From the NCBI GenBank assembly GCA_963823665.1, contig CAWGMQ010000008.1, forward strand, positions 1,984,001-2,048,000: a stretch of 64,000 nucleotides of DNA, read 5' to 3'. The position numbers and the translations under genes are program-made. The notes beneath the pieces were generated by a model, which was given only the letters and a program-made list of their open reading frames with translations, did no database searches and was not told where the DNA came from. The stretch's first letter is position 1. Each line of letters opens with the position of its first letter. The stretch comes from an uncultured Planctomycetota bacterium. Lineage in GTDB: Bacteria > Planctomycetota > Planctomycetia > Isosphaerales > Isosphaeraceae. Shown here piece by piece: positions 15,337 through 48,475 of the stretch.

Positions 15337-16110
15337 ATGTCCCTCGAAATGCCACCGACTACACTGCTGGCAACGCCAACTTCGACGCCAGCTCCAGTTG
15401 CAGCGCCCCCCCCCAACGTCCCAACACCAACGGCGACTCAAGCCGCCGCCCCGGCGACCGTCACGATCCCGCTCGACCAGCTTAACGCCTTCACGGCGAT
15501 GCAGGCGCGGCTCGTGAAGGTCGAAGAGGAACAACAGAAACGCGAAGCCGCGGTGCGCGAGGAGCAGGTCAAGATTCTCGCCGCCAAAGGGCAGGTCGAA
15601 GAGGCGCTCCGTCAGCAGCGCGAAGAAGCCCAGCGGGCCATCGAGGCCGAGCGGGTGCAGCGCGCCCAGACCGAAGAACGGGCCAAGCGGTACGCCCTGG
15701 ACGGCGAGCTCGCCCGGGCGCTGGGATCGCAACCGCTCGTCCCTGGCGGCGCCGAGCAATTGACGCACCTGCTCCGCGACCATTTCGTCGTTGAGCAGGC
15801 CGGGAACTCGTTCCAGGTTCGCACGCAAGACTTCCGGTCGGTCGGCGACTATATCGGTGCCATGCTCGGCCGCTCCGAGTTTGCCCATTTCCTGCGGGCG
15901 CAGAACCCCGCCGGCGGGACCGGCGGCGTCGGCACGCAGTCGGCTCCGTCGTCGCCGGCCAATCCCGCGGCGCCGGTCGAGCCGAAGAACTTCTCCGAGG
16001 CCGTCCTGATGCAGTACGCCGCGACCGCGAAACAGTCGGCCGACCCGCGGCTTAATCCGACGGTGCCGTTCGGGTTGCGGGGAGTCGGACCGGCGGCGAA
16101 GACGGGCTAA
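15337..16110 (+). CDS. Putative capsid scaffolding protein
   Basis: Pro/Thr-rich N-terminus, long E/Q/R/A coiled coil, AHFLRAQNPAGGTGG motif, lies just upstream of the capsid gene. Confidence 0.7.
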   Translation: MSLEMPPTTLLATPTSTPAPVAAPPPNVPTPTATQAAAPATVTIPLDQLNAFTAMQARLVKVEEEQQKREAAVREEQVKILAAKGQVEEALRQQREEAQRAIEAERVQRAQTEERAKRYALDGELARALGSQPLVPGGAEQLTHLLRDHFVVEQAGNSFQVRTQDFRSVGDYIGAMLGRSEFAHFLRAQNPAGGTGGVGTQSAPSSPANPAAPVEPKNFSEAVLMQYAATAKQSADPRLNPTVPFGLRGVGPAAKTG

Positions 16111-16113
16111 GCG

Positions 16114-16329
16114 ATGCCAACCCCCCAAGCCCAGTGGCTCACTCTGGCGTTCCTCCTACTCGTCTCGGCGACCGTCGTCGCTTACGACGTTTTGATCATC
16201 CGCGCCGCCGGCCCCGACGCTTCGATTTCGCGGGTCCTCGGCCGTCTGCTCGAGCTGCCGTCGGCGTTCGTCGTTTTCGTCTTCTGGCTCGGCGTGCTCG
16301 TCGGGCATGTTTGGGTTCCCGCAAGATAA
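16114..16329 (+). CDS. Small two-TM membrane protein (holin-like)
   Basis: 71 aa, two hydrophobic segments, ASISRV and LGVLVGHVW. Confidence 0.5.
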   Translation: MPTPQAQWLTLAFLLLVSATVVAYDVLIIRAAGPDASISRVLGRLLELPSAFVVFVFWLGVLVGHVWVPAR

Positions 16330-16404
16330 TCGCCCCTCGAGGGCACTCCGGCCGGGCATCGCAGCCGACCCGAGACCCGTGCACCGCTGCTCTGAGACGT
16401 TCCC

Positions 16405-17586
16405 ATGTCCGCCAATTTCCTTCAAGGGTTCCTCGGCACCCAGCAAGCCGGCATCGAAGCACGGAATGACATCACCGTCGCCGTGCGCAACTGGTTCGCC
16501 AACCGAAACCCGCTCGTGACCCGGCTGCCGTACGTCCCGGTCGAGCGCGTCGACTTCCTGATGTACTCCCACCAGTACCGCAATCGGTCGACCACGCTCG
16601 CCACGGCGATCTCGGCGTCGCACGACGACCGGTCTGGTGCTCGGCGACTCGACGTTCCTGATGAATCACGACGTCCTCGAGCTGGTCGACTCCAACGGGA
16701 CGACCGAGCGTGTCCAGATCAACGGCGACCCGACGTCGTCGCTCGACGATCACGGTCATTCGCGGGGTCGCCGGCACGACCGCGACCACGACGCTGTCAA
16801 CCGCGACCGTCGTCAACCTGATCGGTAACAGCCGGACGGGCGCCGAGGTCAACCAGACCGGCCTGACGACGATCGGCGTGTCCCGCACGCAGTATTGCCA
16901 GACGTTCCAGTTCCCGGTGCAGATCGGCGGCTCGGCCCAGACGGCACGGGCGCAGGTCATGCCGGGCGGCATTCAGTCGCCGTTCGACTTCAACATGACG
17001 ATCCAGCTCCAGAACATGGTCGACGACATCGAGAACACCTGCTATTACGGGATCTCTCAGGCCCCCGTCGACTGCCGCCGGCACGACCGCCAAGATGAAC
17101 GGGCTGCGGTACATCCTGCAGACGAACAACATCAGCCCGGCGACCAGCACGACGCCGACCAACGCCTCGGCCTACGGCTCGACCGACCTGATCCGCGACA
17201 CGCTCCAGGCCGCCCGCAGCGGCGGCGGCGAGCCCGACCTGCTGGTCGTATCGACTAACTTCATGAGCGGCTTCGCGACGTGGGGCCAGGCCGTCCAGCG
17301 CATCCCGGCCGGCGAGACCGTCTTCGGCACGCCGATCAACGTGCTCGAGGCGCCGTTCCTTCACGGCGTGACGATCGTCGAAGCGCCGCTCTTGCGGCCG
17401 TACACCGCGATCGCCCTGACGTCGAGCGAGGTCTACATCCGCAACAAGCGGAACCCGTACTGGAACCTCCGCGGCAACCGCGGCGACATGGTCGAGGGCG
17501 ACTGGATCGCGGAACTGGCGATCGAGGTCGTCAACGAGTCCCACCACGCCTGGGTCGAGGGCATCACGGCCTTCAGCGCAAACTGA
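16405..17586 (+). CDS. Major capsid protein, SU10/DUF5309-like; three 1-bp insertions (errors or pseudogene)
   Basis: Removing single bases at ~16621, ~16742 and ~17073 gives ~392 aa: RNPLVTRLP...TQYCQTFQFPVQIGGSAQ...DDIENTCYYG...KMNGLRYI...AELAIEVVNESHHA; family by recognition. Confidence 0.75.
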
Positions 17587-17638: not shown

Positions 17639-18104
17639 ATGAAGACGCGGCGCCGCGGCGAAATCACCACCCCTACGGAACACCTTATGCTCTGGCGCTT
17701 CCGCGGCACACCCCACTACCTCGGCCAGCAGGCCAGCCGGCTCGGCGTGACTCCGGTCCTCGCCGACCGCGCCCGCAACAACCAGGAAATCTACCGCGTG
17801 TCGGTTCTGCTAGCCCAGCTCTGCGAGCGGTACCACAAGGCCCGCAAGGAAGACGGCCGGCCCGTCCTGCCGCTGACCGAACTGGCGCAGGTCCGCGGGA
17901 CGCTTCAGCAGGCCGAGCAGGAATGCGCCAAGCTGCACGCGCTGGCCGCGACCGCCGCCGACATGATCGACGAGGCGTACCGCGCTTTCGCGACCGAGCA
18001 GCCGCGGCGGCACGTTCCTCGTCATGAGCGATTACGACATCCCCACCATTCCGCTACCGCTCGGCGACGGCACCGTCGGGATTTCCGCCGCGGTCGGCGA
18101 CTAA
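17639..18104 (+). CDS. Hypothetical phage protein (1-bp insertion at ~18004)
   Basis: Helical MKTRRRGEITTP...FATEQP continues as GGTFLVMSDYDIP...AVGD* after removing one base. Confidence 0.5.
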
Positions 18105-18116
18105 GAGGTACAGCCC

Positions 18117-18869
18117 ATGTCCTACACGGCACCGAGCGTGGTCGCGAGCGGCATCAACTTCGCGACGTTCCAATCCGACGGCGCCTCAGGCCACCTCGAG
18201 GCCCTGATCACCGCCCAGGCCGCGACCGCGGCCCCGACGGCGGCGCCGACGCTTTCCGAAACCGGCTCCGGCGGTACGCTGCCGGCCGCCACGTATTACG
18301 CGGTCATCACGGAGTCGAACGGCTTCGGCGAGACGACCGCCAGTCCGGCCTCGACCGGCCAGGCGATCACGCTCGGCCAGGACCTGGTCGTCACGTTCCC
18401 GACGCTCAAGTCGGGCAACGTGTCGCGCAACACGTATGTCGGCACGGCGAGCACCGGCCCGTTCACGCTGGCCGCGTCCGGCACGACGGCCTCGACGGTG
18501 ACGATCTCCGCGCCACTGCCGATCAACAGCTATGCCGCCGCTCCGCCGACGATCAACACGACCGGATTGACGTACACCGACGCGAACGGGAACGTCCATA
18601 ACCGGCGGCTCGAGCTGCTACGGGCCGTCAAGGACGGCAACCTCGAGATGGTCTACCAGTTCCTGCGGCAGGTCGTCTACGACTTTAATCATGGCATGCC
18701 GATGTCGCTCGCGGGAACGATCTCGCGGTTCCGCGACGCGCATTGCGTGTTCGCCATCCTTTCGACGCTCTGCTCCGAGGCCGGTACGCTCGTCGACGCC
18801 AACGCGGGGACGCTCGGGACGTCGACGAACGTGATCGGGAACGTGACCAACAAACGGACCTGGCCCTAA
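18117..18869 (+). CDS. Putative virion structural/decoration protein
   Basis: Ser/Thr/Ala-rich beta-type sequence (APTLSETGSGGTLPAATYYAVIT...GET); RBS GAGG. Confidence 0.6.
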   Translation: MSYTAPSVVASGINFATFQSDGASGHLEALITAQAATAAPTAAPTLSETGSGGTLPAATYYAVITESNGFGETTASPASTGQAITLGQDLVVTFPTLKSGNVSRNTYVGTASTGPFTLAASGTTASTVTISAPLPINSYAAAPPTINTTGLTYTDANGNVHNRRLELLRAVKDGNLEMVYQFLRQVVYDFNHGMPMSLAGTISRFRDAHCVFAILSTLCSEAGTLVDANAGTLGTSTNVIGNVTNKRTWP

Positions 18870-18872
18870 GAG

Positions 18873-19709
18873 ATGAAGCAACCCAAACCGCTATTCCGCC
18901 GCTCGACCCCGACGACCGAGCACGAGTCAGTCCCGATCCCGCCGCCGGTCGACGTACCGGCGTTCCAGCCCGACCGCCACATCGTGCACGTCCCGGTCGC
19001 CCGGTTCATCGAGCTCGATTGCGACCATTGCCTGCGGGCGCTCGAGCATCAGTACGGCGTCCGGGTCGATCGGTCGAAAGGTTCGTCGGCGATCGATATC
19101 GCCCGCAACATCCGGGCAACCGAGTCGATGGTCGAGGGATTCGAGTCGGTGCTGTTCATCGACTCCGACATGATGTTCGACCCGGCCGACGCCGTGCGGC
19201 TCTTTTGTTCGCCGGAACCGGTGATTGCGGGCCTGTACGCCGCCAAGAAACTCGGCAACGGTCAGGTCAATTGCAACTTCGAGGACGGAATCGACTCCGT
19301 CAAGATCGGGCCGTGGGCCGACGAGCCGTACCCGATCCAGGCCGTCGGCGCCGGCTTCCTGCGGATCAAGACCAGCGCCCTGAAACACGTTGCCAAGACG
19401 CTCAACCTGCCGTACTGCAACATGGCCGAGCGGCGGGCCTACCCGTTCTTCCAGCCGATGATCGTCGAGATGGACGGCGTGCCGTGCTACCTCGGCGAAG
19501 ACTACAGCTTCATTCACCGTTGCCGCCTGGCCGGGCTGCGGCCCGTCGTCGACACGTCGTTTCGGCTCTGGCACATCGGCGATTACGCCTTCGGGATCGA
19601 AGAAGCCGGCGGCCAGTACATCGAGCGAAGCCGCAACCTGCTTTATCAGATCGGCCGCCAAAAACTCGGCAACGACCCGCGCGATACGGCGCCGCCTTCA
19701 TTGGATTGA
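18873..19709 (+). CDS. GT-A fold glycosyltransferase-like protein
   Basis: IARN, LFIDSDM (DxD), VGAGFLRI, YLGEDYSF..R, DTSFRLWHIG. Confidence 0.75.
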   Translation: MKQPKPLFRRSTPTTEHESVPIPPPVDVPAFQPDRHIVHVPVARFIELDCDHCLRALEHQYGVRVDRSKGSSAIDIARNIRATESMVEGFESVLFIDSDMMFDPADAVRLFCSPEPVIAGLYAAKKLGNGQVNCNFEDGIDSVKIGPWADEPYPIQAVGAGFLRIKTSALKHVAKTLNLPYCNMAERRAYPFFQPMIVEMDGVPCYLGEDYSFIHRCRLAGLRPVVDTSFRLWHIGDYAFGIEEAGGQYIERSRNLLYQIGRQKLGNDPRDTAPPSLD

Positions 19710-19712
19710 CGC

Positions 19713-20108
19713 ATGCCGAAACCGCAACTCACCCGCCGCCAGCGCTGGGCGCCCTACGTCCGGCAGCTCGGCGACATCCTACGTCTACGCGACTGGCGGC
19801 TCGAGGTCGCCGAGGACGCGCCGGCCGATCCGACCGCGATCGCGTCGTGCTGCCCCGTCGATGGCCGCAAGTATGGCGTCATACGTCTTGGCGAGTCATT
19901 CCTGACTGACGATCCGGCGGAACAGCGGCACACACTGGCTCACGAACTCATGCACTGTCACCTTGGCCCGATGTGCCGAATGATCGAAGCACATGACGGA
20001 ATGCCGCCGGCCGCCAAGCTGGCGATGGAATACTGCGTCGACGGCCTGGCCGACGCGATCGCGCCGCTTCTCCCGTTACCGCCGGCAAGCACCCGCTCCC
20101 AATACTGA
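19713..20108 (+). CDS. HEXXH zinc-metallopeptidase-like protein
   Basis: LRLRDWRL...RHTLAHELMHCHL...MEYCVDGLA. Confidence 0.65.
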   Translation: MPKPQLTRRQRWAPYVRQLGDILRLRDWRLEVAEDAPADPTAIASCCPVDGRKYGVIRLGESFLTDDPAEQRHTLAHELMHCHLGPMCRMIEAHDGMPPAAKLAMEYCVDGLADAIAPLLPLPPASTRSQY

Positions 20109-20120
20109 AAGGACCATCCA

Positions 20121-20465
20121 ATGGCCAACGTAGAACGCGGAGTCGTCAAGGGCTCCAACATGGAAGGCGCCGGCGGCGACCGGCGCGCTAACGGCTTCAT
20201 GCCGCTCGGCGGCGGCGCCGCGACCGTGCACCCCGCCAACCGCGGCGCCGGCGGCGACCGACGGGCCGGCTCGTTCCCGCTGACCGCGGGCGGCGCCGGC
20301 ATCACGCCGCCGAATCACCGGTTCGACGTCGGGATGGTCAAGATGCCGCAGCCCGAGTCGGCGATCGAGCCGGGCAAGGGAACCGTCCCCGTCAACCCGT
20401 TCCTGCCCGGCGGCGCCGCGGCGCGGGTCGCGGGGCAGGTTGCGGATGAGGGAAAGCCGCGTTGA
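20121..20465 (+). CDS. Gly/Pro-rich hypothetical protein with duplicated GAGGDRRA motif
   Basis: RBS AAGGA; repeat at 78-nt spacing. Confidence 0.55.
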   Translation: MANVERGVVKGSNMEGAGGDRRANGFMPLGGGAATVHPANRGAGGDRRAGSFPLTAGGAGITPPNHRFDVGMVKMPQPESAIEPGKGTVPVNPFLPGGAAARVAGQVADEGKPR

Positions 20466-20549
20466 TTTTAGATTTCGGATTTTAGATTTGCGATTGAAAG
20501 AAGACGATGACTTCCCTAATCCAAAATCCAAAATCGCAAATCCAAAATC
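20464..20549. repeat. Heptamer-repeat palindrome (GATTTTA/AATCCAA type, STRR/REP-like)
   Basis: gattttagatttcggattttagatttgcgatt ... aatccaaaatccaaaatcgcaaatccaaaatc directly after a stop codon. Confidence 0.8.
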
Positions 20550-21070
20550 CAGCAGCTCCGAACCCGGAACTGCTAAGGGCTCTCCGCCCCGAGGCCGACC
20601 GCGCCGCCGGCATCGTCGCCCGGCGACTGGCCGACGCGAAGACCCACGCCGCCGCCGGCAACCTGCCGACGGCGAACCGGCGGCTGGCCGAGCTGACCGA
20701 GTCGTTATCGCGGCACGTCGCCGATACCCGCGGCCATTTCTACCGGGCGGCGTTCGCGCAGCATCGGCGGAACGGGCTCGACCCGGCGATCCACCAGGTC
20801 GACCTGACGCCTGACCCGGAAGGGGAGGCCGTCGTTCGCAAGACGCCGGTCCTCGGCCGAAATTACGTCGCCGACTTCCTCGATATCGTCGCCGACGCCG
20901 AAGCGGGGCTCCAAGCGGCCGTCCTGGCCGGCGGCGGCGATTACCTCGAGGCCTGGGAGGCCGAGCACTCCGACCGGCTGACGGGACGGGCGACGGCGGA
21001 GCTATCGAACAGTCAAATTGCGATCTTTGAAGCGGTCGGGCAAATCTTGGTGAAGCCAGAGTTCCGATAA
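20507..21070 (+). CDS. Hypothetical phage protein
   Basis: 187-aa helical ORF with host-like codon usage; N-terminus overlaps the heptamer repeat. Confidence 0.55.
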   Translation: MTSLIQNPKSQIQNPAAPNPELLRALRPEADRAAGIVARRLADAKTHAAAGNLPTANRRLAELTESLSRHVADTRGHFYRAAFAQHRRNGLDPAIHQVDLTPDPEGEAVVRKTPVLGRNYVADFLDIVADAEAGLQAAVLAGGGDYLEAWEAEHSDRLTGRATAELSNSQIAIFEAVGQILVKPEFR

Positions 21071-21458
21071 GGTTATATCCTTTGTCAGTTATCAGCCGCA
21101 CCTTGCGGCTGGTTCAACCTCATTCGGAGTTACCAGATTGCAACGAAGATCAGATCGAAAACGTCGGTAGGTCGCCAGACGACCAAAGCCAGCCGCGGCG
21201 GCGCCAGCGCCACCGCCGCGAAGAAAAGGAGCATGGCAAGTGCGACTCGAACAGCGGCCCAGATGAACAAGGGCGCCGTCGGCGCCAGCCCGAAGTCGAA
21301 GCCGATCGCTCGACCGTCCTGCGGAACGAAGACCGGCGGCGGCAAGGCTCCGGGCGGCAAGCGGGGATGCTAAAGCGCGACTACTGACGCGCAACCTTCG
21401 GGTCACGTATGAGCCGGCCGGGTACGTTCCCGGCCGGCGCCTTTCGCGGGAGAATTTG

Positions 21459-21800
21459 ATGAAACGCCGCACGCTTTTCGGTCTGCCGCTCATCGGGCTT
21501 TTCGGCTTCTGGCCGCGGCGGTGGGGCGCCGACGAACCGCTCCCCGTACCGCCCGCCGCGCCGATCGAGCCGTACATGGCGTGGGCTCGGCTGCGGTCGA
21601 GGACCGGGCCGACGATGGATCGGCTCATCGACCTGGCGGAGAACGACCCGCACGCCCGCGGCGATTACGATCGTTTGCTCAGCATGGCACTTCAACAAGT
21701 CGGTGTGCCGCTCCTCGGCCACGAGTCGACCAATCTCGGCATCATCTACCACTGCGGCGAAATACCAGCCGCTCCATTCGGCCATAGGAAGGCGCTGAAT
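21459..21800 (+). CDS. Hypothetical protein with Tat-like N-terminus (3' end uncertain)
   Basis: MKRRTLFGLPLIGLFG; RBS GGAG. Confidence 0.35.
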
Positions 21801-21919
21801 ACGAAGGGCGTCGTCCGTCCCCGTCCCCGAATCGCTGCTCTCCTACTTCCGGCCCGAGAACCGCGGCGAAGACTTTCCGCGGGGCGTGCCATACAAACAC
21901 ATGCCGTGAGGCAATACCG

Positions 21920-22108
21920 ATGGCCGACAAACACTCCCACTGGATCGGACTCGCACACCTCGACAAAGGCGCCTTGCGCCGCGAGACGCACACCGCCGCC
22001 GGTAAGGACATCAGCGAGAAGCGGCTTCACGCCGCAGCGCACTCGAAGAACGGGACGATCCGCAAACAGGCCGAGCTGGCCGAGACGCTGAAGAACCTGC
22101 ACCGCTAA
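21920..22108 (+). CDS. Small basic phage protein
   Basis: WIG..LDKGALRRE...AAHSKNGTIRKQAELAETLKNLH, a pattern recognised from phage head regions; RBS GAGG. Confidence 0.6.
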   Translation: MADKHSHWIGLAHLDKGALRRETHTAAGKDISEKRLHAAAHSKNGTIRKQAELAETLKNLHR

Positions 22109-22202
22109 TTTTGGATTTTGGATTTCGGATTCTAGATTGGCGGAACCCAGTCGTTGCTAGTCGCGCTTGCAATCCAGAATCGCAAATCCAAAATCTAAAA
22201 TC
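22108..22202. repeat. Heptamer-repeat palindrome, copy 2
   Basis: attttggattttggatttcggattctagatt ... aatccagaatcgcaaatccaaaatctaaaatc after a TAA. Confidence 0.8.
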
Positions 22203-22525
22203 GACAAGTGGCCGAACGACAAATCATCTCCGGCGAAGAATGGGTCAGGATCGCACAGTCTCGGTCCAAAGCTCTCCGCTCCCGCCCGTTATACCGACAA
22301 ACGAGCCGACCGCCGCGGAATGCCGTCGTCCGCGAATAGAAATGGTCGGCGAAGTCGTCGCCGTCGGGCCACGTACAGCGCGCCATCACGCCCGAGGCCG
22401 ACAACGGGATCGTCTCCTCGACGCCGTTGCGCGGGCCGCCGTCAAGATAGACACGCAAACCGCCGGTTGCTCGTTTGCAATCGACGATCGCAAACCGCTT
22501 GAATTTGTGACCTGCCGGAGTCGTC

Positions 22526-23209
22526 ATGAGTAACCTCCCTGAGCTGACCTCTCCCGTCTATGCTACTGACGAGGACATCCTGGTCAACGCCAGTGGCGAC
22601 TTCGCGACGCTGGCTCCGACCTGGCAGTGCATGGCAAAAGGGACGGACGGCGTCTTCAATTCCGGCCAGCCGTGGATCCTCAACTCGGCCTCCGTCAACT
22701 TCGCGTTGCAGGGCGTCGCGCCCAATCAGGTTGTATGCCTGTCGGGTCCGAAATCGTCCTATCCCGGCGGCGGCGATTTCCTGGCGATCGATTCCGTTTC
22801 CACAAATACGATCACGCTGCGCCGGCCGTACAAAGACCTGAACATCGGCTCGCCGCCCGGTCCGTCGGCCGGCCTGACCGGCGTCACGTTCAACATCACG
22901 ACGTTCGACCCCCAGACGGCCGCTTCAACGTTCGACATCAAGCGGCGGTTCGGGATCGACGAGAATATCACCTTCCGCGACTCGAGCTGGATCTACGATA
23001 TCCAGGACCTGCGGATGGCCGTCGTGTTGTCGGTTCTCTATGACCGCTACACGGCCGAGCTCCGATCGGACCGCGGTGACTGGGTTCGCAAAATGGGCCA
23101 CATTCGCAGCAAGCGGGACGAGATCATCGACCGCGTCCAGGTCCGCTGGGGTCCGTACGGCAACTCGGCCGAGCCCTCGACCGTCTTCTCCTGCAAGATC
23201 AGCCGATGA
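22526..23209 (+). CDS. Putative head-tail adaptor protein
   Basis: YATDEDI N-terminus, helical C-terminus (DLRMAVVLSVLY); position after head genes. Confidence 0.5.
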   Translation: MSNLPELTSPVYATDEDILVNASGDFATLAPTWQCMAKGTDGVFNSGQPWILNSASVNFALQGVAPNQVVCLSGPKSSYPGGGDFLAIDSVSTNTITLRRPYKDLNIGSPPGPSAGLTGVTFNITTFDPQTAASTFDIKRRFGIDENITFRDSSWIYDIQDLRMAVVLSVLYDRYTAELRSDRGDWVRKMGHIRSKRDEIIDRVQVRWGPYGNSAEPSTVFSCKISR

Positions 23210-23310: not shown

Positions 23311-23724
23311 ATGTCGATCAGCTATCAAGACGCCGTTCGTAATACGCGGCTGAACGCCGTCACAACGGCGCTCGGCACGACCGCGTACCTCGAGATTTTC
23401 ACCGGTGCGCCGGCCGGCAAAACCGCCGGGGTTTTCAACGCCGATCCGGGGACGAAGCTCGCATCGCTGGCGTGCTCGAACCCCGTCGCCGGCTCCGCAT
23501 CGGGCGGCGCCCTGACGTTCAGCTCGATCTCGCCGGCCGCGGCGCTCGCCAGCGGGACACCTGGGTCGTTCCGGTTCAAGACCGCGGCCGGCGGCGCACC
23601 GTCGACCGTCATCATCGAGGGCGACGCGGCCGTCGGTTCGGGCTCGCTCAACTTCGCGTCGACGATCTCCAGCGGCGGCACGGTCACGATCACGGCGGGG
23701 GCGATTACCGAGGGCAACGCATGA
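23311..23724 (+). CDS. Small beta-rich virion structural protein
   Basis: AVRNTRLNAV...LEIFTGA...ASGTPGSFR...GGTVTIT..ITEGNA pattern, recognised from phage fibre/spike-base proteins. Confidence 0.65.
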   Translation: MSISYQDAVRNTRLNAVTTALGTTAYLEIFTGAPAGKTAGVFNADPGTKLASLACSNPVAGSASGGALTFSSISPAAALASGTPGSFRFKTAAGGAPSTVIIEGDAAVGSGSLNFASTISSGGTVTITAGAITEGNA

Positions 23725-28328: not shown

Positions 28329-32855
<4,527 letters not shown>

Positions 32856-32859
<4 letters not shown>

Positions 32860-36965: not shown

Positions 36966-36973
36966 TTTAACCG

Positions 36974-37384: not shown

Positions 37385-37411
37385 CACGATAACAATTGAT
37401 ATCAGGCACGC

Positions 37412-38939: not shown

Positions 38940-41231
38940 ATGGGCCAGCCCGCCAGTTTCGACCTCTCCCCGACCGCCGCCGGCATCACGACCAACGCGA
39001 TGCCGATCGCCGTCGCGCTCTATCTGCCCGGCTCTGGCGGCGGAGGCGAAGACGATAGCAATAGCCCGTACACGATTCTCCCGAACGTCTACTGCCTGCG
39101 GATCGATTACCGGGAAGGCCCAGAACCTCCCGTCGCTCGGTTCCAGTACATGACGGACGACGCCCTGGCCGCCACGATGAACTGGCCTTCCCAGTTTGAA
39201 AAGCTCTGGCCGATCGACGCCCAGGGCAATTACGTCGTCATCAACGACGACCGAATTGTCGTGATGACCCAACTCCCCCCGTCGACGCCCGACGGCGATT
39301 CGCAGACCGTCGTTCTGTTCGACGGCTTCGCCCAGATTCCCCAGGTTGACCTGTCGGCCCAAAGCCAGGCGATCACGTTCGTCGCCATCGGGACGGCGAT
39401 CCGGCTCTGGGATACGCCGATCGCGGGCCGCGCCCAGCGCGATGCCTCGGAGGCCGATGATACGACCGGCGACTACGATCGCCGCATCGCGTTGCCGTGC
39501 CGGTTCAATCCGTCGGACACGTCGATCGGATCGCAAGGCGGCTACATCGGCAACTGCGTCGCGACGGCCGATTACACCGTCGACGGCGACGACAGCTTTC
39601 CGGTTTTTCTCGATCCCCTGGTGCTCGAGCGGGGCGAGAATAGCACGTCGTTCTGGTACGTCAGCGATGCAATGGCGTACCTGATCGAGGAGGAACCGAG
39701 CCCGGAAGACGACGGCGGAAACCCGTTCGTGATCTACCCGACGCTGAGCTCGCTCAAAGCGCTTCTGTCGTGCTACTCGCCGCCGACCGGCCAGCTCCTG
39801 AACTCCGGCGACGCGCAGGAAACCGACATCGTCATCCGCGACTACGACGCCAGCAACAAGGCCGTCCCCGACGTCATGGCCGAGCTGCTCCGGTACTGCG
39901 GTTTCGTGATGGTATTCTTCACCGATACGAATACCGACGGAACGCCGGAGACGTACCTGAAGGTCATACGCAAGGACGCGCTGGCGACGACCACACCGAA
40001 GGTCCTCTATCTCGCCGCGAACGGGGCGTCATCGCTCGACCTCTCGTCGAACAACGTCACGTCGCTTCACCTGGCCCGCGATACGAATCAGCTCGTCGAC
40101 CAGTGGACGATGGCGACGGCGCCGCAGCAAGTAGAGATCAGCGTTTACCTTGCTCCGGGATTCGAGCCCAGCTCCGGCGATGTTTCCAACCGCAAGCCGT
40201 TCCTGAAATCAAACCTGACCGGAGCGACCAACGATCAACGCCGCATGTATCGCTGGTTCATCGCCGACGAATGCGCCGACGGTCACTGGAACATGCTCGA
40301 CGCCGCGTGGGTGACGGATAAACCACTTGACCTCACGTCGGTATTTCCATTCGACAAGAACGGAGATTATACCTACGTCGACCGTTACCGCCCTGGCTCT
40401 CAGACCTTGATCTCAAAGGACGTCAACGGCAAGCCCCTGAAGTGCGTTCTCGAGATCGCCCAAGACGGCTATTACTCACAAAATCCCAAGCTCGAGGCCG
40501 CAGCCGGCAGCGACGGATTTATCACGATCCCTCATGGCACCTGGCGACTACTGGACGACCGCCTCGGCATCGAGTTCATAGGTGAGGATCCCGGTCAGTG
40601 GGACTTCAAATCCAGCCCCACGACGGGTGGATCGGCGTCGAAGGTTAGTATCGATATCATCGCCGGTACCGCGGCTCCGACCGACTCGAACGTCTTCGTC
40701 CTGCGCCTGACGACCGTCATCGAGGCCGACCAGCGAATCGGCGTCCCGAACACCGACACCGAGAATGCCGTCACCGCGTTGGGCCGCAAGTCAGTCCCGA
40801 CCCAGTACACCCGCGAGCGGTCCGCCGACGGTCGCGACCATTTCCAGTACTGCACGATCGCACCGGGCAGCCTGAATTACACGACGCAGACCGATATCAA
40901 CGGCGCAATGAGCGACGGCACACATCCGCTCGTGATGCGCGACGACACGGCCGCGGCGCTCACCCACGCCGAGCAGCTCCGGTCGGCCCATGAGTTCCCG
41001 ACGCTGGCCGGCTCGGCGACGCTGCCGTTCATCACCGACTATTACCAGATCGGCGACCGAGTGAAGATCATCCAGGGCCGCAACGCCAACTTGCAAATCA
41101 ACGTCGGCGTCGACCAGGGCGAGACGGCGTGCTATCCGTGGGTGACCGCGTTCGCGTGGGATTTCTCGGGCGATAAGCAGCAAACGATTATCCAGTTCAG
41201 CGACCGGCGAGCGGAACCTCAAGGCGTATGA
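38940..41231 (+). CDS. Putative baseplate hub/tail-tip protein (763 aa)
   Basis: VVLFDGFA, MAELLRYCG, GSATLP...YQIGDRV hub-like pattern. Confidence 0.6.
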   Translation: MGQPASFDLSPTAAGITTNAMPIAVALYLPGSGGGGEDDSNSPYTILPNVYCLRIDYREGPEPPVARFQYMTDDALAATMNWPSQFEKLWPIDAQGNYVVINDDRIVVMTQLPPSTPDGDSQTVVLFDGFAQIPQVDLSAQSQAITFVAIGTAIRLWDTPIAGRAQRDASEADDTTGDYDRRIALPCRFNPSDTSIGSQGGYIGNCVATADYTVDGDDSFPVFLDPLVLERGENSTSFWYVSDAMAYLIEEEPSPEDDGGNPFVIYPTLSSLKALLSCYSPPTGQLLNSGDAQETDIVIRDYDASNKAVPDVMAELLRYCGFVMVFFTDTNTDGTPETYLKVIRKDALATTTPKVLYLAANGASSLDLSSNNVTSLHLARDTNQLVDQWTMATAPQQVEISVYLAPGFEPSSGDVSNRKPFLKSNLTGATNDQRRMYRWFIADECADGHWNMLDAAWVTDKPLDLTSVFPFDKNGDYTYVDRYRPGSQTLISKDVNGKPLKCVLEIAQDGYYSQNPKLEAAAGSDGFITIPHGTWRLLDDRLGIEFIGEDPGQWDFKSSPTTGGSASKVSIDIIAGTAAPTDSNVFVLRLTTVIEADQRIGVPNTDTENAVTALGRKSVPTQYTRERSADGRDHFQYCTIAPGSLNYTTQTDINGAMSDGTHPLVMRDDTAAALTHAEQLRSAHEFPTLAGSATLPFITDYYQIGDRVKIIQGRNANLQINVGVDQGETACYPWVTAFAWDFSGDKQQTIIQFSDRRAEPQGV

Positions 41232-41553
41232 ACGACCTGCGGGTGATGCGCGAACGACAGTCCGCAGCCGCCGAAGCCCTCGACCGCGCCTCGGCGCCGA
41301 GCCGTCGGGCTCCGCGGCGCTATGCGTGATCACGACGACCGTCACGACCTACCCGACGTCTGCCGGCGTCTTCTACGCATGCAACCCCGAGCTGATCTAC
41401 GGCAACGAAACCGAGGGCGCGACGCCAACGTTCACGGCCGACGGCTCGACGATCGTCTATGCGCTCAATCTGGGAACGTCGATTCCGCCGAACGGGACGA
41501 TCCTCGTGATTCACTCGGTCGGCGGACGGTGGGTTTTTCGATTCGATGGTTGA
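41228..41553 (+). CDS. Small tail protein (frameshift at ~41300); paralog of the 43500 N-terminal domain
   Basis: YGNETEGATPTFTADG...HSVGGRWV. Confidence 0.55.
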
Positions 41554-41572
41554 TTCAATTTTGGATCTTGAC

Positions 41573-43478
41573 GTGCCCGATAGAACTATGCCGCGTTCAA
41601 TTCTTTACACAAGCTCTTTTAAAGAGTGCGTTTATGTGGACTATCGCTTGCAATCTATGGGAGGCCCGTTTATACTTATTCGATCGCTGCGAAAGGAGTT
41701 GCGCCTAATCTGATTCACACCGTCGACCCCCGACAATAGCGGCTCTTTGACCCCTTCGAGGGCGTCTTCCCTCCCGTTGGGCGGCAGTTGATTACGGAAG
41801 GCTGGCAGGGCGTCTTCGGACATGTCCTGCTCGAATTGATGCCCGTCGGTGAACTGGGCCAGCATTTCAACCCGGACTTCGGCGCCCCGACTAAGGAACT
41901 CTACTCAATGGCCGGGCTGGTGCTTCTGACTGACTTCAACGACTGAACCGCTCAGCAGGCGGTCGAGGCTTACATCTTTCGGTCTGACGTCCAGTACGCG
42001 TTGAACCTTGAGCCTGGCGTTTCGGTGTCGGCCCGAACCGTAGAGCGCTATCAAAAAATGTTTCGCGAAGACGAACTGGCTGCCAAGGTCTTTGAAGATG
42101 TGACTGGCCGGCTGACCGACGCGCTCGAAATCAACGTAACACAACAGCGGCTCGGCTCCACTCACGTCTTCAGCCATATGGCCACATTCGGTCGCACCAA
42201 GCTGATGGCGGTGGCGATCAAGCGATTTCTCGCGCAAGTGAAACGACACCCCCCCCGAGCAGTACACCGCCCTGCCTGTGGAATTCCGCCTCCGTTACGA
42301 GCGTTCCGAATCGCAGCTATTCGCTGGTGCCAAGGACAACGAAGCACGACTGCGGTCGCGGCAACAGGCTGCCGAGGATCTGCTTTTCATCTTCGAGCGA
42401 TTCGCCGACTGCGCCGAACTGAATAACCGCTCGACCTATAAGATGCTCCGCACTATCTTCGATCAACCATGCCGGGTAGTTGACGGCAAGGTGACGGTTC
42501 AACAGAAGCCCGATACCAACAGAATTCAGAACCCTTCCGACCCCGACGCGAATTACGACGGTCACAAGGGGGCAGGCTACCAAGTGCAGATCGCCGAGAC
42601 CTGCGGCTCGGCCAACGAGGTTCAGTTGATTACGGCCGTATTGCCACAAACGGCCTGTGAAACGGACGAGGCGGGGGTTGGTCCGATGCTCGATCAACTC
42701 GATCGGTCTGGGCGCCTGCCGGAAGAGCTGTCTGCCGACGGAATGTACGGCACTGACGAAAACGTTCAAGCGGCTGAAAAGCGGGGTATGGAGCTCGTGG
42801 CACCAATTCGCGGCCGAACGCCGGAGATCGACCTCTCGGACCTGTCAATCGATGATTTTGCCTTGGACCAGCGGACCGGAGAAATAACCGCCTGTCCAAC
42901 GGGACACAAGCCACTGGCGGTCGAGCATGACGACGCGACGGAGACGACTCGGGTCGTGATGGCGGCGGAGAATTGTGAGGGATGCCCGTTCTTCAACGCC
43001 TGTCCGATCCACAAGAGTTGGAGTGGTCATTATGCGGTGAGTTTCAACGCCAAGGATCAGCGCTTGGCCGGAAGGCGTCGCGAAATTGAAACCGACGTGT
43101 TTGGGGCGCGATATGCTCGACGCGCGGGCATTGAGTCGATCAACAGCGGCTTGAAGAATTGGCTCGGCTTGGGCCGTCTGCGCGTACGAGGACGGGGAAG
43201 CGTGTTTCGTGTGATCTTACATAAACTGACTGGATGGAACGTGCTGCGAGCGGCGGCCTCGAAGAAGATGCGCGCGTGGATAAGTGTTCAAGCGCCTCAG
43301 ACCCTGCAAGCGGGACAATCTGCGTTGAATGCGCGCCTTCACATAGCCTGGTTGTGGCCAACAGACACGTTCACGACGGCTATCATGGGTTTCCGCGACC
43401 ATTCTCATCGTTTTTCAGGCGCAAACGCGGCCTGAGCGCCGCGCGGCGACCTCGCCAACGTCAAGTTCTGTCGGGGAC
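41573..43478 (+). mobile_element. IS1182/IS5-like element with degenerate transposase
   Basis: IRs GTGCCCGATAGAACT / GTCCCCGACAGAACT; GAPTKELYSM, QNPSDPDANYDGHKGAGYQVQI, ADGMYG, C..CP...CP, YARRAGIES; stops at 41737 and 41944 plus a frameshift. Confidence 0.8.
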
Positions 43479-43499
43479 ATCAAAATCCAAAATTGCAAG

Positions 43500-44267
43500 A
43501 TGGTTGACCGCGCCTTATCGACTCGCCAGAATGCCGACATGCTCGACGGCGGCCACGCCGCCGAGGCGCGGATCCTCCGCGACCGGATCACGGCGCACGA
43601 AAACGCCCTCGACCTGCTCGGCGCCCAAGACCTCTCCGGCACGCCGAGGCTGCTCGTCCAGGTTTACAACGGCGGATCGATGCCGAACGTCGTCCCGCGA
43701 GTGTACTTCACGCACCCCGTTTTAGCCTACGGCACCGAGACCGAAGGGGGCACGTACACGCTCTCGGCCGACGCGGCGACGACCGTGCCGGTGATCGTCC
43801 TGAACAAGGTCCCGTCGGTCGGCGACTACCTGACCGCGTATTCCGTCGGCGGCCGATGGGTATCGGAAGAAACGAACGGCGGAAGTAGCGGTATCCCGTG
43901 CTCGCCGTGCAGTCTGCCGGCAACCAACCTTACGCTTTCGTGGACGAACCCGCTGCTCGGCAACGGATCGGCCACGATGACGTATTCGGCGAGCCCGCAG
44001 GAATGGACGACGGGATGCTGCGATGGCGGCCTCTATTTCCGGCTCTTTTGCACGGGCGGCAACATCGAGCTTCGAGCGTATTTCTTCACCAGCGGATCAT
44101 GCCCGACGGGGACGACGTCTTACTGCTCGAACCTCGGGAGCGCGCCACTCGAGCTGGTCCTGAGCAGCCATACGTGCTCGCCACTTTCGCTGACGTTCAC
44201 CGTCAACGGCACCGACTGCCCGACGCTATTCAGCGATGGGAACACGCAGTTCACGGTGACTTTCTGA
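43500..44267 (+). CDS. Tail-associated protein with Cys-rich C-terminal domain
   Basis: YGTETEGGTYTLSADA...YSVGGRWV, then PCSPC...GCCDGG...CP. Confidence 0.6.
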   Translation: MVDRALSTRQNADMLDGGHAAEARILRDRITAHENALDLLGAQDLSGTPRLLVQVYNGGSMPNVVPRVYFTHPVLAYGTETEGGTYTLSADAATTVPVIVLNKVPSVGDYLTAYSVGGRWVSEETNGGSSGIPCSPCSLPATNLTLSWTNPLLGNGSATMTYSASPQEWTTGCCDGGLYFRLFCTGGNIELRAYFFTSGSCPTGTTSYCSNLGSAPLELVLSSHTCSPLSLTFTVNGTDCPTLFSDGNTQFTVTF

Positions 44268-45244
44268 CTTTGCAAAAGTGCCAAGAAAGAGGTTTTGTCT
44301 TGGGTCACCTTGAGTTGTGATTAGGACCGGTGGGTGTAGTAGAGAAAGCGGTGTGACATGTTTTCGACAGGCAATTCTCGGCGGCTCTCCGAAAAGCAGA
44401 CCAGCGGAGATTGGAGTCCATCGATAGTATGAACCACGGAGATGTATCGACGAAAATGAAGTGCCATCGATAGTGATGATAGCAAACGCTTGCGGGCGTC
44501 CAAAAGCGCACTGTGCCGGTAGCGCCGACCTTGGCGCGGCGCGTGCTGTCGAATCGGGAGTATCGTAAGCGGGTGTACGGGAAGTAGGGTTTTTTCGACC
44601 ATGCTGTTTCAGTCGTGCGTCTCCGACAGTCGCGCCGCCAGACGTTCTTTGATCACCAGTTCATCTTCTCTTTTCGCGGTGAGCCGGAAGCTTCCTGCAA
44701 GATTTAGCGCCTCGTACATCGGGAGACGGTGGATTGCGGCGATCGGTGCAGCACATTCTTTGGGCCCGACAATCCGCCTGAGAAGGCTGAAAGTTTTTTC
44801 CCGAATGGATGGAGATGGATGGCTTCTGGTCCACGGCGTGACTGTGCAGCGAGCAGGCCCGCGGCGTTGTTGCCCTCGCCGTAGTAAGCTATTAAGAGCG
44901 CATGGATATGTATGAAATAAATATACTTATTAATAAGATATACTAAAAGAACGTCATGTGCAAGATAGAGGAGAGCGTCATATTATGAGCTGACGCAACG
45001 GGCGGCGCGATAGTGAGAGTGGTGGCGACCACTATTGTTGCACGCGACTCGTGCTTGTAGCCCGCGGCTTCCTTGTTGGCAGTTGTCGGGTCAGCGTTCG
45101 GAACTTCCAGTCTTCATGCGTCTGGTAGGCTGCAGAGCGGACCAACTCATCCCTTGGCAGGAGACCACCAGATCGCGGCGACCTGCGCGATAACCTAAAC
45201 CGACGAACCGGCCTCCAGTCTGCATTATGCGGTGACAGCGGGCG

Positions 45245-45610
45245 TGTTTTGAATCAGTTGGAAATGGAATGACCACGGTTTCGAGTTAGCTTATAACTCG
45301 AATGGGAGGTCTTCCATGAGCAAGCCACGTAAGCACTACGATGCGGTCGAGAAAGTTGCCATCCTGCGACGCCATCTCATGGAGCGTATCCCCGTCTCTG
45401 ATCTTTGCGATCAGTACGACATCCAGCCATCGATGTTCTACAACTGGCAGAAACAGTTGTTCGAGAACGGGGCCGCAGCCTTTGGGCAGACTCGCTCGGC
45501 ACCGGAGAAGCACCAGGAGCGCAGAATCGCTGCTCTTCAGGATAAACTGCAGCGCAAGAACGAGGTCGTGTCCGAGCTGCTGGAAGAGCACGTCAAACTA
45601 AAAAAAGTTC
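45245..45610 (+). mobile_element. IS3-family 5' fragment (IRL plus orfA), near-identical to the 53699-55297 element
   Basis: TGTTTTGAATCAGTTGGAAATGGAAT; orfA from 45316 cut just after AAAAAAAG by ISL3. Confidence 0.9.
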
Positions 45611-45680
45611 GGGTCTTCGGCAGAATTTGTGGGTTGAAAAACGATGCAGCAGCTCGGCTCGGGCTCGACAGGAGGGTTCT

Positions 45681-45747
45681 CCCTCCCACCTTCACATTCG
45701 GTCCGCCCTGCTAGGTTGAGGGCGAAGCGAAGGTGAAGGCGGGAGGG
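45681..45747. other. 28-11-28 hairpin homologous to 5336-5402
   Basis: ccctcccaccttcacattcggtccgccc-tgctaggttga-gggcgaagcgaaggtgaaggcgggaggg. Confidence 0.8.
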
Positions 45748-45904
45748 GTAGGCGAAGTTCACATTTGATGGTTCAGTTTTAAATAGCTCTTCGCGGACTC
45801 GTTCTTGAGAAAGGTTTTTTTGAAGAAGGTAGGGTAGTGCATCGTGCGCGGCCGTCGGTTAGGGAAGGGTTACCAAGACCATCCCAATCGAGAGGCCCCA
45901 CACG

Positions 45905-47158
45905 ATGCTCCTCAAGACTACCCTCAATCGCATTGCACCGCAAAAGTCCTTCGTGTACGGCAAGGTAAGTTTGGTCTCGAAAGGAAAGCAACTTGCCTTG
46001 GAGGTAGAAATTGAAGCCCGCCGCAACAGCCGAGCTGTTTGCTCCGGGTGCCACCGTAAGCGAGCCGGGTATGATCAACTACCTGTACGAAGGTTCGAGT
46101 TCGTGCCGCTCTGGCAGATCGCTGTGTTCTTTGTCTACGCAATGAGGCGCGTTGACTGCCCGAAGTGCGGTGTGATCGTCGAAGAGGTCCCGTGGAGTGA
46201 CGGCAAGAGCCCGGTGACTACGGCCTACCGATGGTTTCTAGCCGGTTGGGCCAAGCGGCTCTCGTGGCTGGAAGTCGCCTTGATATTCCATACTACCTGG
46301 GAAACTGTGTACCGCTCGGTCGAGTATGCAGTCGCATGGGGCTTGGCGAGACGGACGATGACCGGAATCAAGGCCATCGCTGTAGACGAAGTGCAGTGGC
46401 AAAGGGGCCATCATTACCTGACGCTGGTTTACCAGATTGACGCTGGGTTCAGGCGGTTGCTCTGGATTGGGTTGGACCGGACGGAGGAAAGCCTGCGTGG
46501 CTTTTTCCAAACCATAACCGACGAGACCAAGAACTCGATCCGCTATCTATGCAGCGATATGTGGAAACCGTACCTCAACGTGCTGGCCCAAGAGGTTTCT
46601 GGCGCGATCCACGTGCTCGACCGCTTTCACATCATGCAAGCGATGAATAAGGCGATCGACGAAGTACGTGCCGAGGAAGCGCGCCGGCTGAAGCGAGATG
46701 GCTACGAGCCAGTCCTGAAACGGGCGCGATGGTGCCTGCTGAAGCGGCCGGAGAACCTAACAAAGAAGCAGACCGTGAGATTGGCCGAACTGGTGCAGTA
46801 CAACCTAAAGTCCGTGAGAAGCTATCTTTTGCGGGAGGATTTTCAGCGTTTCTGGACTTACCAATATCACGGCTGGGCGAGTCGATTTCTGCACGAGTGG
46901 TGCACCAGGACGATGCGATCAAAGATCGAGCCAATGAAGAAAGTGGCTCGAAGGCTTCGCAGCCATGAAGAATTGATCCTGAATTGGTTCAAGGCCCGTG
47001 GGACGATTTCCGCAGGCATTGCAGAGGGCCTGAACAACAAGGTGAAATTGACGACGAGAAAGGCGTACGGTTTTCGGACGTTCGATGCAGTGAAAAACGC
47101 CTTGTATCACAGCCTTGGCGCCCTGCCTGAGCCAGAATTTACCCACAGATTCTGCTGA
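45905..47158 (+). CDS. ISL3-family transposase
   Basis: CSGC...CPKC zinc finger, IAVDE, CSDMWKPY, LDRFH, EGLNNKVK...AYGFR. Confidence 0.95.
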   Translation: MLLKTTLNRIAPQKSFVYGKVSLVSKGKQLALEVEIEARRNSRAVCSGCHRKRAGYDQLPVRRFEFVPLWQIAVFFVYAMRRVDCPKCGVIVEEVPWSDGKSPVTTAYRWFLAGWAKRLSWLEVALIFHTTWETVYRSVEYAVAWGLARRTMTGIKAIAVDEVQWQRGHHYLTLVYQIDAGFRRLLWIGLDRTEESLRGFFQTITDETKNSIRYLCSDMWKPYLNVLAQEVSGAIHVLDRFHIMQAMNKAIDEVRAEEARRLKRDGYEPVLKRARWCLLKRPENLTKKQTVRLAELVQYNLKSVRSYLLREDFQRFWTYQYHGWASRFLHEWCTRTMRSKIEPMKKVARRLRSHEELILNWFKARGTISAGIAEGLNNKVKLTTRKAYGFRTFDAVKNALYHSLGALPEPEFTHRFC

Positions 47159-47164
47159 GGAGGC

Positions 47165-47929
47165 CAAATTTCAAGATGTCGGCCATGGCTGTGGATCTAA
47201 TCCAGTCGGGCATGGCGTACTCGGCCGCGGGATGGATGAGTCGATTGAGCGTCATCATGCACGTAACCTTGATTATCCAGGCCGAGAACCCGAGCGATTT
47301 CAAGATCTCGTCGAGCCCCAATCGCTTCCAGAATTCATAACCGACATGAATATGCCCAGCCGGCCGGGGATCCTCGAACGTCAGTCGATTGAAGTGCACC
47401 GACACGAGGTCATCCGGCGAAACCGTGGTAACCTCGGACGTGGAACTGGCCCCGCTGGGCGTGGTCGTTGCGGGGAGGCTCTTTACGAGCCGATCCAATT
47501 CTGGGTCCTCGTCCGCCATGCCCGGCAAGGACATCTGGCCGGTGAGCGCATCTTGGAGCTTTCGAGCCAGGGCCAGCCATTCTTCGGGTGGCTTTGGCGA
47601 GAGGTCGCCGAGGGAACACACGACCTTCTGACGAGGTCCTTTCTCTGTGAGGACCGACTCGACCAGAAGATAATTGACGTATGTTCGATCTTTATATCGA
47701 CGGACGGTTTTTCGAACGTACATGGTCACTAGAGATGACAATTCGAGCGTGCAAATACAAGACTGATCGAAACGGATTTAGTCACTATTTCTGACGGTGG
47801 CGTTTAAAGTGGACTGAAGCCAGTCGCCCATGCTCGCCAATCCGCGCAGATTTAACTGAAAATATCAATATACATATACTGCGACGAATGCGCAAAGCTA
47901 TCTCCTAATTCCTTCCTGCGAAAGTCGGG
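47165..47929 (-). mobile_element. IS1634-family element, 5' fragment (transposase N-terminus from 47723)
   Basis: MYVRKTVRRYK...YLLVESVLTEKGPRQKVVCSLG...WKRLGLDEIL...LNRLIHP; end CCCGACTTTCGCAGG at 47929. Confidence 0.8.
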
Positions 47930-48237
47930 CTAACGTGCCCCGCGCCACCGCGCAGCGGTGGTCAAAAGATCCCGAGGTCCGAAAGATGGCCGAGGAACTT
48001 CGGCGCCGCGCGCTCGATCGAGCGGTCGGCAAGGTTGCCATGCGTTCGACCTGGGTGATGGATCGGATCACCCGGATCGCGACGGAAGGCGACTCGGACG
48101 AGGTGTGCCTGAAGGCGCTCCGCGGCCTGCTCGCGGAGATGATCACCGTTTCCAAATACAGCGGGCTCGAAACCCGCCTGGCCGGAGTCGAGGAGACGCT
48201 TGATGCGCGGCGTGGACACGCGGGTCGAGCGGTGTAA
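47930..48237 (+). pseudogene. Terminase-small-subunit-like HTH protein, 5' end removed by IS1634
   Basis: NVPRATAQRWSKDPEVRK...LETRLAGVEE; directly precedes the terL fragment. Confidence 0.5.
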
Positions 48238-48475
48238 GGCCCTGTCGGGGCCGACGACATGCGCCGATGTCGCCGACCGCTCGCCGTGGCGCTGGTACGC
48301 GCACGACTGCCCCTGTGGGTTTCCACCCGGGAATGCCGCGAGCATCCTCGGGCGAGAAACCCAGCGACCGCCGCCGGGTGACTGGCGGGTTTGGGGCTAC
48401 GTGGCCGGACCGCGGGGCAGGCAAGACGCGAGCTGGGGCCGCGTGGATCCAGCAACGGGTCGAGGACGGCGTCAG
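48200..48475 (+). pseudogene. Terminase large subunit N-terminal fragment
   Basis: Across frameshifts reads QRPPPGDWRVWGYVAG/RGAGKTRAGAAWIQQRV (adenine-binding Q and Walker A); truncated at ~48475. Confidence 0.75.

Follow-up and report, generated by a model that had tools for sequence, protein, structure and literature searches.

A vertically inherited virion gene cassette in Isosphaeraceae, a candidate gene transfer agent-like system

The window analyzed here is a 64,000-nucleotide stretch (positions 1,984,001-2,048,000 of contig C8) of the genome of an uncultured member of the planctomycete family Isosphaeraceae (GCA_963823665.1, referred to as G000; 16.46 Mb in 12 contigs). Reading of its open reading frames (ORFs) reveals a co-oriented, plus-strand set of virion genes at 15,337-44,267, which in our estimate is, with a probability of about 85%, a domesticated virion cassette that is kept by the host and vertically inherited. 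An earlier, sequence-only reading of the same stretch had placed the module at 15,337-48,475. The core of that interval stands, but the element starts at ~14,595, with a frameshifted regulator-like gene, and ends at 44,267; the stretch 44,300-47,900 consists of insertion sequence (IS) debris and is followed by a separate terS-terL pair. The cassette has a GC content of 0.646 vs 0.575 and 0.581 in its two flanks, and the strong preference for GC-ending codons seen earlier is borne out by the GC content of third codon positions (GC3), 0.72-0.96 in the module genes.

All cassette genes listed below are on the plus strand. The first one (14,595-15,152; GC3 ~0.5) encodes a putative regulator that combines a helix-turn-helix (HTH) motif with a Cys/His zinc finger, shows 39% identity to its homologue over residues 120-193, and has one frameshift near 14,900. 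It directly abuts the gene for the head scaffolding protein (15,337-16,110; phrog_206, E = 6e-6; homologues in 48 of the cassette loci gathered from relatives), and therefore the peptidase, membrane protein, terL, and portal genes that precede the scaffold in related cassettes are gone from this site. A small membrane protein, recognized by its hydrophobic sequence (16,114-16,329; 94% in the related genome G001), is followed by the major capsid protein of the SU10_MCP family (16,405-17,586; Pfam match with E = 2e-18), whose orthologue in G001 is intact and 391 aa long. Small conserved and accessory genes, delineated from ORFs and profile matches, occupy 17,639-22,108 and include those for a 250-aa protein with a Thr/Ala-rich composition (18,117-18,869), a phrog_1574 protein (18,873-19,709), and a weakly matching metalloprotease-like ORF (19,713-20,108). 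The spacers at 20,461-20,548 and 22,108-22,207 contain palindromic arrays of inverted heptamer repeats. These had been described as REP (repetitive extragenic palindromic)-like features of the module; they are indeed present but are host repeats, because 15 of their 18 exact matches in G000 fall outside the module (the reversed control gave none). The next core gene (22,526-23,209), found in 41 loci, encodes a putative head-tail adaptor. This label derives from an Atlas lead (24% of the members of the rank-16 cluster are tagged as Mu gp36), and the protein yielded no solved-structure match and no useful PHROG or PDB sequence match.

The remaining part of the cassette is devoted to the tail and its appendages. 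A virion structural protein (phrog_3758) and an FN3-domain protein, both recognized by profile matches (23,311-24,700), precede a protein labeled fibre-like by composition, with four 189-aa repeats encoded by 567-nt repeats (24,712-28,278), and a large, beta-rich, appendage-like protein with a frameshift near 28,600 (28,329-32,859), whose orthologous region in G001 has a LamG match. The terminator-position protein (32,856-33,308; 31 loci), assigned by position only, is retained in head-only cassettes as well. The tail tube protein (33,324-33,743), for which PHROG and PDB sequence searches gave no useful match, was recognized by its predicted fold: the model has a predicted local distance difference test score (pLDDT) of 86, and its best structural match is a siphophage tail tube (Z = 11.9, root mean square deviation 2.8, 124 aligned residues); no sheath-sized gene neighbors it. 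The tail assembly chaperone gene (34,198-34,768) carries the -1 slippery heptamer CCCAAAA at 34,578-34,584, after which the -1 frame stays open as far as the next gene; the same heptamer is found at the chaperone end in 12 of 15 homologues. Next come a 542-aa tape-measure-position protein, labeled by position and composition (34,769-36,397), four tail-tip region genes conserved across loci, the first of them frameshifted (36,394-38,936), and a 763-aa protein predicted by fold to be a baseplate hub or tail tip protein (38,940-41,231), the model of which is weak (pLDDT 57), with T5 tail-tip and gp27/VgrG-type hubs as top Foldseek matches (E = 2e-7). A small conserved tip-region gene (41,228-41,553) is frameshifted in G000, and an IS1182-like element on the plus strand (41,556-43,495) is inserted in a heptamer repeat between it and the last cassette gene, whose product is Cys-rich in its C-terminal half (43,500-44,267; 68% in G001). 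Thus, the near-complete virion set proposed earlier holds for scaffold, capsid, tube, chaperone frameshift, and hub, whereas the adaptor label is a lead, and the terminator, tape measure, and fibre proteins, which have no family match, owe their labels to position and composition.

Related cassettes share a core gene order, terL-portal-scaffold-capsid-adaptor, to which a tail part may or may not be added; capsid, scaffold, portal, and terL of this core have profile matches, with phrog_2 and phrog_145 matched in the relatives. The genes fall into three clades, A, B, and C, with the window cassette in clade A. Clade B cassettes, which include both tailed and head-only forms, are located after PPase/CvpA/S4/pfk/EgtD and before Trm112, with at least one of these markers beside the cassette in 16 of the 23 clade B genomes whose loci were retrieved; the others are on short contigs or elsewhere. 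Of 22 genomes with clade A or C cassettes, 11 have them between MraW and an M32 peptidase; in four (G000 and G001 among them) the cassette is displaced, and for seven the site is unassigned. For G077, G080, G095, G021, and G033 the locus was assigned by coordinates or left unassigned. The B site is empty in two clade C hosts, where the EgtD-Trm112 gap is 49 and 68 bp (G061 and G068), and G110 retains cassette end remnants there. Upstream, A and C cassettes add the HTH/zinc-finger gene, a gene for a 299-aa peptidase-like protein, and membrane proteins, and downstream they add pentapeptide and sigma-70 genes; no primase was found in the window cassette or in B cassettes. The earlier description of a structure-only module therefore fits the window copy, whereas across the family the cassette also comprises a terminase, a portal, a peptidase with small membrane proteins, a sigma factor, and, in some cases, a primase. 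Of 35 cassette terminases, 34 retain an intact Walker A motif and all have an intact Walker B. The conserved 299-aa protein has no Pfam or PDB match, and comparison with C1 peptidase gave a probability of 0.4%, yet Gln, Cys, and His line up, a lead toward a papain-like protein with a role in lysis. A scan of 92 cluster representatives, together with the 135 ORFs of 27 cassettes that fell outside any cluster, revealed no integrase or repressor families; run on genes called by a simple custom script, it left out ORFs of <90 aa and four of >900 aa and recovered three control integrases. Within that scope, and with no flanking direct repeat around the window cassette, the marks of an intact prophage (integrase, att repeats, repressor) were not found. 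In the G075 cassette (L184), glycosyltransferases, methyltransferases, and tetratricopeptide repeat proteins are inserted amid the fibre genes, which may point to glycosylation of particles or surfaces.

The capsid gene is present in a single copy in G000 and mostly so elsewhere in the family. Of 73 other genomes of the family that are at least 85% complete, 55 carry it. A smaller sample gave 26 of 36 for the rest of the family and none of 24 for other families, and a profile search gave 44 of 59 within the family vs 1 of 241 outside it, the latter being a weak partial match. The capsid-positive counts include G013 and G035, whose only copy is prophage-like, and G024, where its type is unclear. 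Presence follows genus, with 8/8, 5/5, and 5/5 genomes in some genera and 0/3, 0/2, and 0/2 in others. Besides G013, 16 capsid-positive genomes lack a tube match genome-wide, including G027 (1 contig), G091 (3 contigs), and G107 (6 contigs).

The host tree, built from RpoB alone, unites the A and C hosts in a single clade with support of 1.0. It was compared with a tree of concatenated terL, portal, capsid, and adaptor, counting only splits supported at 0.95 or higher. For clades A and C together (21 genomes), all 11 supported cassette splits are also present in the RpoB tree (Mantel 0.69), and for clade B (19 genomes), 6 of 8 are (Mantel 0.79); as related genomes are not independent, the permutation p-values of these Mantel tests overstate significance. 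Across all 42 genomes, 15 of 24 supported splits are shared and 7 are in conflict. Thus, vertical inheritance and co-diversification are seen within A+C and within B, and not as one family-wide origin. Ratios of nonsynonymous to synonymous substitution rates (dN/dS) of cassette genes range from 0.05 to 0.36 across 11 pairs of genomes (one further pair showed saturation), compared to 0.05-0.10 for rpoB, and the terminase and portal of head-only clade B cassettes have intact motifs and a dN/dS of 0.10-0.23. GC3 of terL, portal, and capsid tracks that of rpoB (r = 0.91-0.93; 24-29 genomes, three left out) over a host range of 0.34 to 0.99. These comparisons show selection acting on a DNA-packaging head that is inherited like host genes. 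Chiefly because tail-less cassettes retain terminase and portal, DNA packaging is favored as the selected function and a tailocin is disfavored. Our interpretation is that such cassettes were acquired on at least two occasions from a living, siphovirus-like phage family not described before and became fixed at two sites on the chromosome, with modules still being exchanged.

A search of the window plus 19.5 kb upstream turned up neither a portal gene nor genes for a cassette-type terminase, a sigma factor, a primase, a peptidase, or an intact integrase, in agreement with the earlier remark on the missing portal and integrase, and no flanking direct repeat was found around the cassette. A portal gene of the clade A type is located on contig C2 of G000 (89,763-91,712), adjoining a C1 peptidase gene, with an intact terS-terL pair of a non-cassette type 6 kb away; a search of G000 recovered no terL of the cassette type. 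Displaced portal and terL are also kept in G001, with G000-G001 dN/dS of 0.09 and 0.14. The cassette of G000 is thus displaced and its presumptive system split, with head and tail in the window and the portal and an apparently imported terS-terL on contig C2. The terL fragment near the cassette, previously likened to the terminase of the Rhodobacter capsulatus gene transfer agent (RcGTA), was considered as the cassette terminase and rejected: it is part of a truncated terS-terL (47,929-48,474, plus strand), a paralogue of an intact pair on contig C4 (163,117-165,031), to which it is 87% identical over 549 nt. TerL of this scattered type is found in 15 of 17 genomes of clade A genera, often in several copies, and in 5 of 57 other genomes; in G015, such a pair directly precedes the portal. 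The top 20 matches to the N-terminal ATPase half of the intact paralogue include many different phage terminases at 35-47% identity, and the nuclease half of the scattered terL is 42% identical to the cassette-type terminase. According to the accessible part of PMC7947584, the RcGTA TerL clade is marked by Pro282/Cys292, and virus-like TerLs, including that of one planctomycete prophage, are placed next to RcGTA-like ones. The window fragment stops short of both sites. Since the ATPase half resembles many phage terminases and virus-like TerLs group nearby in that part of PMC7947584, the motif is not diagnostic of RcGTA. Intact pairs of this kind are found among host genes, in multiple copies and almost only in clade A hosts (L049:118-2032, L046:3120-4926, L192-L221), and appear as a widespread ATPase half fused to a family-type nuclease half.

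The copy in G000 bears signs of damage. Its capsid gene is broken by three +1 shifts that had gone unreported (near 16,621, 16,735-41, and 17,074). The cassette has ~8 frameshifts in 27 kb, whereas 13.2 kb of host ORFs contain 4, all but one of them in a single gene; the rpoB gene of G000 is split as well. Because the cassette rate matches this assembly background, the capsid frameshifts may be either assembly errors or marks of early decay. In public sequence data, the best word share was 0.13, and the near-identical contigs listed did not bridge the three shift sites. The capsid branch leading to G000 has 23 synonymous vs 2 nonsynonymous changes, and in twelve core genes that branch has 42 nonsynonymous and 198 synonymous changes, compared to 20 and 237 for G001 (Fisher p = 0.001). 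The predominance of synonymous changes in the capsid and core genes indicates that selection acted on this copy until recently. The copy may be functional or at the onset of decay; we give slightly less than even odds to its still being functional.

Three of the six gene transfer agent (GTA) criteria given in the accessible part of PMC9662315 are seen here on genomic grounds: proteins derived from Caudoviricetes, endogenization over several loci, and vertical inheritance. The other three criteria of that source concern packaging of largely random host DNA, a head that cannot accommodate its own gene set, and delivery of the DNA into other cells. The genomic part of endogenization consists of the fixed loci, the lack of a detectable integrase, and the location of portal and terL on another contig. 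The long-resident, domesticated particle system proposed earlier is therefore upheld, as sporadic, host-incongruent homologues inside complete prophages were looked for and not found. The proposal that it is GTA-like remains the best reading by genomic criteria, and we consider such a function slightly more likely than not. In this scheme, a cassette regulator (the HTH/zinc-finger protein or the sigma factor) would switch the genes on in some cells, heads would be assembled from scaffold, capsid, and portal, and the terminase would pack DNA of the host into them, as proposed because the cassette has no means of excision. Release of the particles may then fall to the putative papain-like peptidase together with the small membrane proteins, and the DNA would be delivered to kin via tail or head fibres, in GTA fashion. 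More tentatively, and with slightly less than even confidence, we suggest a separate Isosphaeraceae GTA lineage, the first in Planctomycetota, that originated when members of a single phage family were domesticated at least twice, at two loci, and that exists in tailed and naturally tail-less forms; in the giant-genome clade of the window, it would have become a split system with its terminase swapped for a mobile terS-terL, letting satellite-like elements ride host particles.

Several observations weigh against a domesticated, vertically inherited, GTA-like cassette. The capsid tree over all genomes fits the host tree poorly (Mantel 0.15), clade B genes sit on paraphyletic hosts, and congruence was tested against a single-gene host tree. 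Cassette dS is ~1-3 times that of rpoB in the same genome pairs. IMG/VR contigs fall among clade C, one long-branch contig falls inside clade A, and G000 and G001 diverge in their chaperone-tape measure block (35%), which indicates that module exchange continues. The capsid is missing from 18 of 73 family genomes, whole genera among them; 9 of 15 clade A cassettes have no intact terL in cis; and a P4-family primase is encoded in 4 of the 9 A/C cassettes that were followed as far as M32. Finally, the G000 copy shows the above excess of nonsynonymous change over G001 and has lost the sigma, pentapeptide, and peptidase genes.

The evidence of domestication would apply equally if the cassette did another job, such as producing decoy or defence particles, releasing DNA by lysis in biofilms, or forming empty heads or fibres as surface or cargo structures. 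The loss of terminase in cis from those nine clade A cassettes, which conserve portal and capsid, and the high variability of fibre and glycosyltransferase genes would fit such a role. Still, the intact, constrained terminase and portal of head-only B cassettes point to packaging, and other terS-terL pairs are at hand in nearly all genomes of clade A hosts, which makes a different job unlikely. Rather less probable is an active, host-specific temperate phage family that re-enters the same sites, so that the cassettes would be cryptic prophages, or helpers maintained by satellites, instead of host functions. Close relatives with integrases or early genes do exist (G035, the second copy in G031, and G013), as do IMG/VR relatives of 38-87 kb; some cassettes have a primase and a sigma factor; and G001 contains an element resembling a satellite, in which an integrase gene occurs together with those for terminase, portal, and tape measure. 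However, the capsid copies that come with integrases or early genes form long separate branches, no integrase was found at the fixed loci and no flanking direct repeat in the window, head-only forms spread across whole genera could not yield infectious tailed phage, GC3 follows the hosts over their entire range, and splits match those of the hosts at genus and clade level.

The suggestion that the system could be tailocin-like, i.e., a flexible (F-type) tailocin killing competitors, draws on the non-contractile tube, chaperone, hub, and variable fibres and on the absence of terminase and portal from the G000 copy. We consider it very improbable: the conserved core is capsid, scaffold, and portal, it is the tail that is dispensable across the family while the packaging head is kept, the capsid was under purifying selection on the G000 branch, and a portal is kept elsewhere in that genome. 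Least credible of all is a single ordinary decaying prophage peculiar to G000. The IS-rich surroundings, the frameshifts, and the lost genes would be expected of one, but orthologues occur family-wide at fixed sites and host genes of G000 are frameshifted too. Given the family-wide presence, the host-congruent trees, and the near absence from other families, this alternative, which the sequence-only reading had kept, is largely refuted.

The Isosphaeraceae prophages and IMG/VR contigs related to the cassette share its gene order and families, with 32-66% capsid identity, and differ from it in having integrases or early genes, other sites or a plasmid location, and long branches. A related capsid (40%) is encoded on a plasmid record of Singulisphaera sp. 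PoT (L335), and in the IMG/VR sequences L247, L251-L257, and L264 the portal gene follows the capsid, an unusual order. G095 combines a host-type clade C cassette with a more divergent second copy (contigs C67 and C18), the capsid of which is identical to that of a 38-kb IMG/VR contig (L246). The satellite-like element of G001 (L159; contig C18, 388,000-407,990) has an integrase-domain gene, a broken terL, a second portal, a sigma-like gene, and homologues of the chaperone and tape measure; neither capsid nor tube gave a match in that stretch. The element could exploit the resident cassette.

The surroundings of the cassette are rich in mobile elements. Dense IS debris, IS21-, IS66-, IS3-, and ISL3-like, covers 1-9,000 and 44,300-55,300 of the window; just outside the cassette (45,316-47,741) it comprises IS3-like, ISL3, and a further truncated transposase-like ORF. 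A block of glycosyltransferase, GmhA/GmhB-like, and transaldolase genes (9,091-14,100) is probably a decayed island, with an integrase fragment at one border and, at the other, a motif that we take to be integrase-tail-like. The integrase remnant (9,091-9,450) was rejected as the integrase of the cassette, being a fragment only, with the sugar-gene block standing between. The transfer-messenger RNA (tmRNA) gene (55,530-55,897) was likewise rejected as an attachment site, as neither the window nor the 19.5 kb upstream of it contains a repeat copy. It adjoins smpB (57,526-57,996), the product of which has an apparently shortened C terminus, and IS3-like elements are located between tmRNA and ispA.

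Proven GTAs come from few lineages, and the frequency of phage domestication is an open question, as candidates unrelated to RcGTA are hard to spot. With no Pfam or NCBIfam match for its terminase or portal and none among the isolated phages of INPHARED for its capsid or terminase, the cassette escapes standard tools. Within one family, it offers a natural series of free prophage, tailed fixed cassette, head-only, split, and deleted site; each main cassette form is carried by cultured strains, so that the GTA question is directly testable. Aquisphaera insulae JC669 has head and tail genes between MraW and M32, Tundrisphaera sp. TA3 has both following EgtD, and Tautonia sociabilis GM2012 and Tautonia sp. 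JC769 have a head-only cassette flanked by EgtD and Trm112. If it does make a DNA-transfer particle, it could serve as a genetic tool for planctomycetes and may bear on the origin of the 10-16 Mb genomes of this clade. We found no description of it in the literature on planctomycete GTAs or Isosphaeraceae phages, supplements being outside the scope of that search; a mention as a "prophage" may exist. There is likewise none in the accessible parts of PMC12603096, 10.1101/2024.01.22.576637, and PMC12673574. As far as these parts of the sources go, PMC12603096 sought phage genes only on plasmids, and 10.1101/2022.02.18.481119 deals with alphaproteobacterial GTAs only.

Among known systems, F-type tailocins (monocin and F-pyocin) share with the cassette the host-kept genes of a non-contractile tail, and the monocin tube is among its fold matches. 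Tailocins are not known to have head genes. The cassette does not show the combination of tail genes without head or packaging genes, and the head is the very core of its Isosphaeraceae form. RcGTA (Rhodogtaviriformidae) likewise has a head-tail cluster without an integrase, vertical inheritance, and genes spread over several loci, and its tube has the same fold as the cassette tube (6tba chain, Z = 9.8, one of many tubes matched). However, it belongs to another phylum, capsid family, and terminase type, whereas the cassette is larger, has long fibres and head-only forms, and is known from genes alone. In a search of the capsid profile A5 against the PDB (E <= 0.01), 9in6 was the only match, with the RcGTA particle entries present in the PDB yet unmatched; judged by its capsid, the cassette is not a member of the RcGTA family. 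The Bartonella GTA is associated with run-off replication and a primase/helicase. The likeness here is a fixed virion cluster tied to a phage-derived primase in some cassette-bearing genomes; unlike there, the primase is found in only the four of nine cassettes mentioned above and not in the window. For the Brachyspira GTA (BhGTA), the accessible part of PMC9662315 reports a conserved terL outside the structural cluster that is proposed to package DNA. G000 and G001 similarly have a terL outside, but in the cassette hosts the outside terL is multi-copy and scattered rather than single copy, and the synteny of the cassette is conserved.

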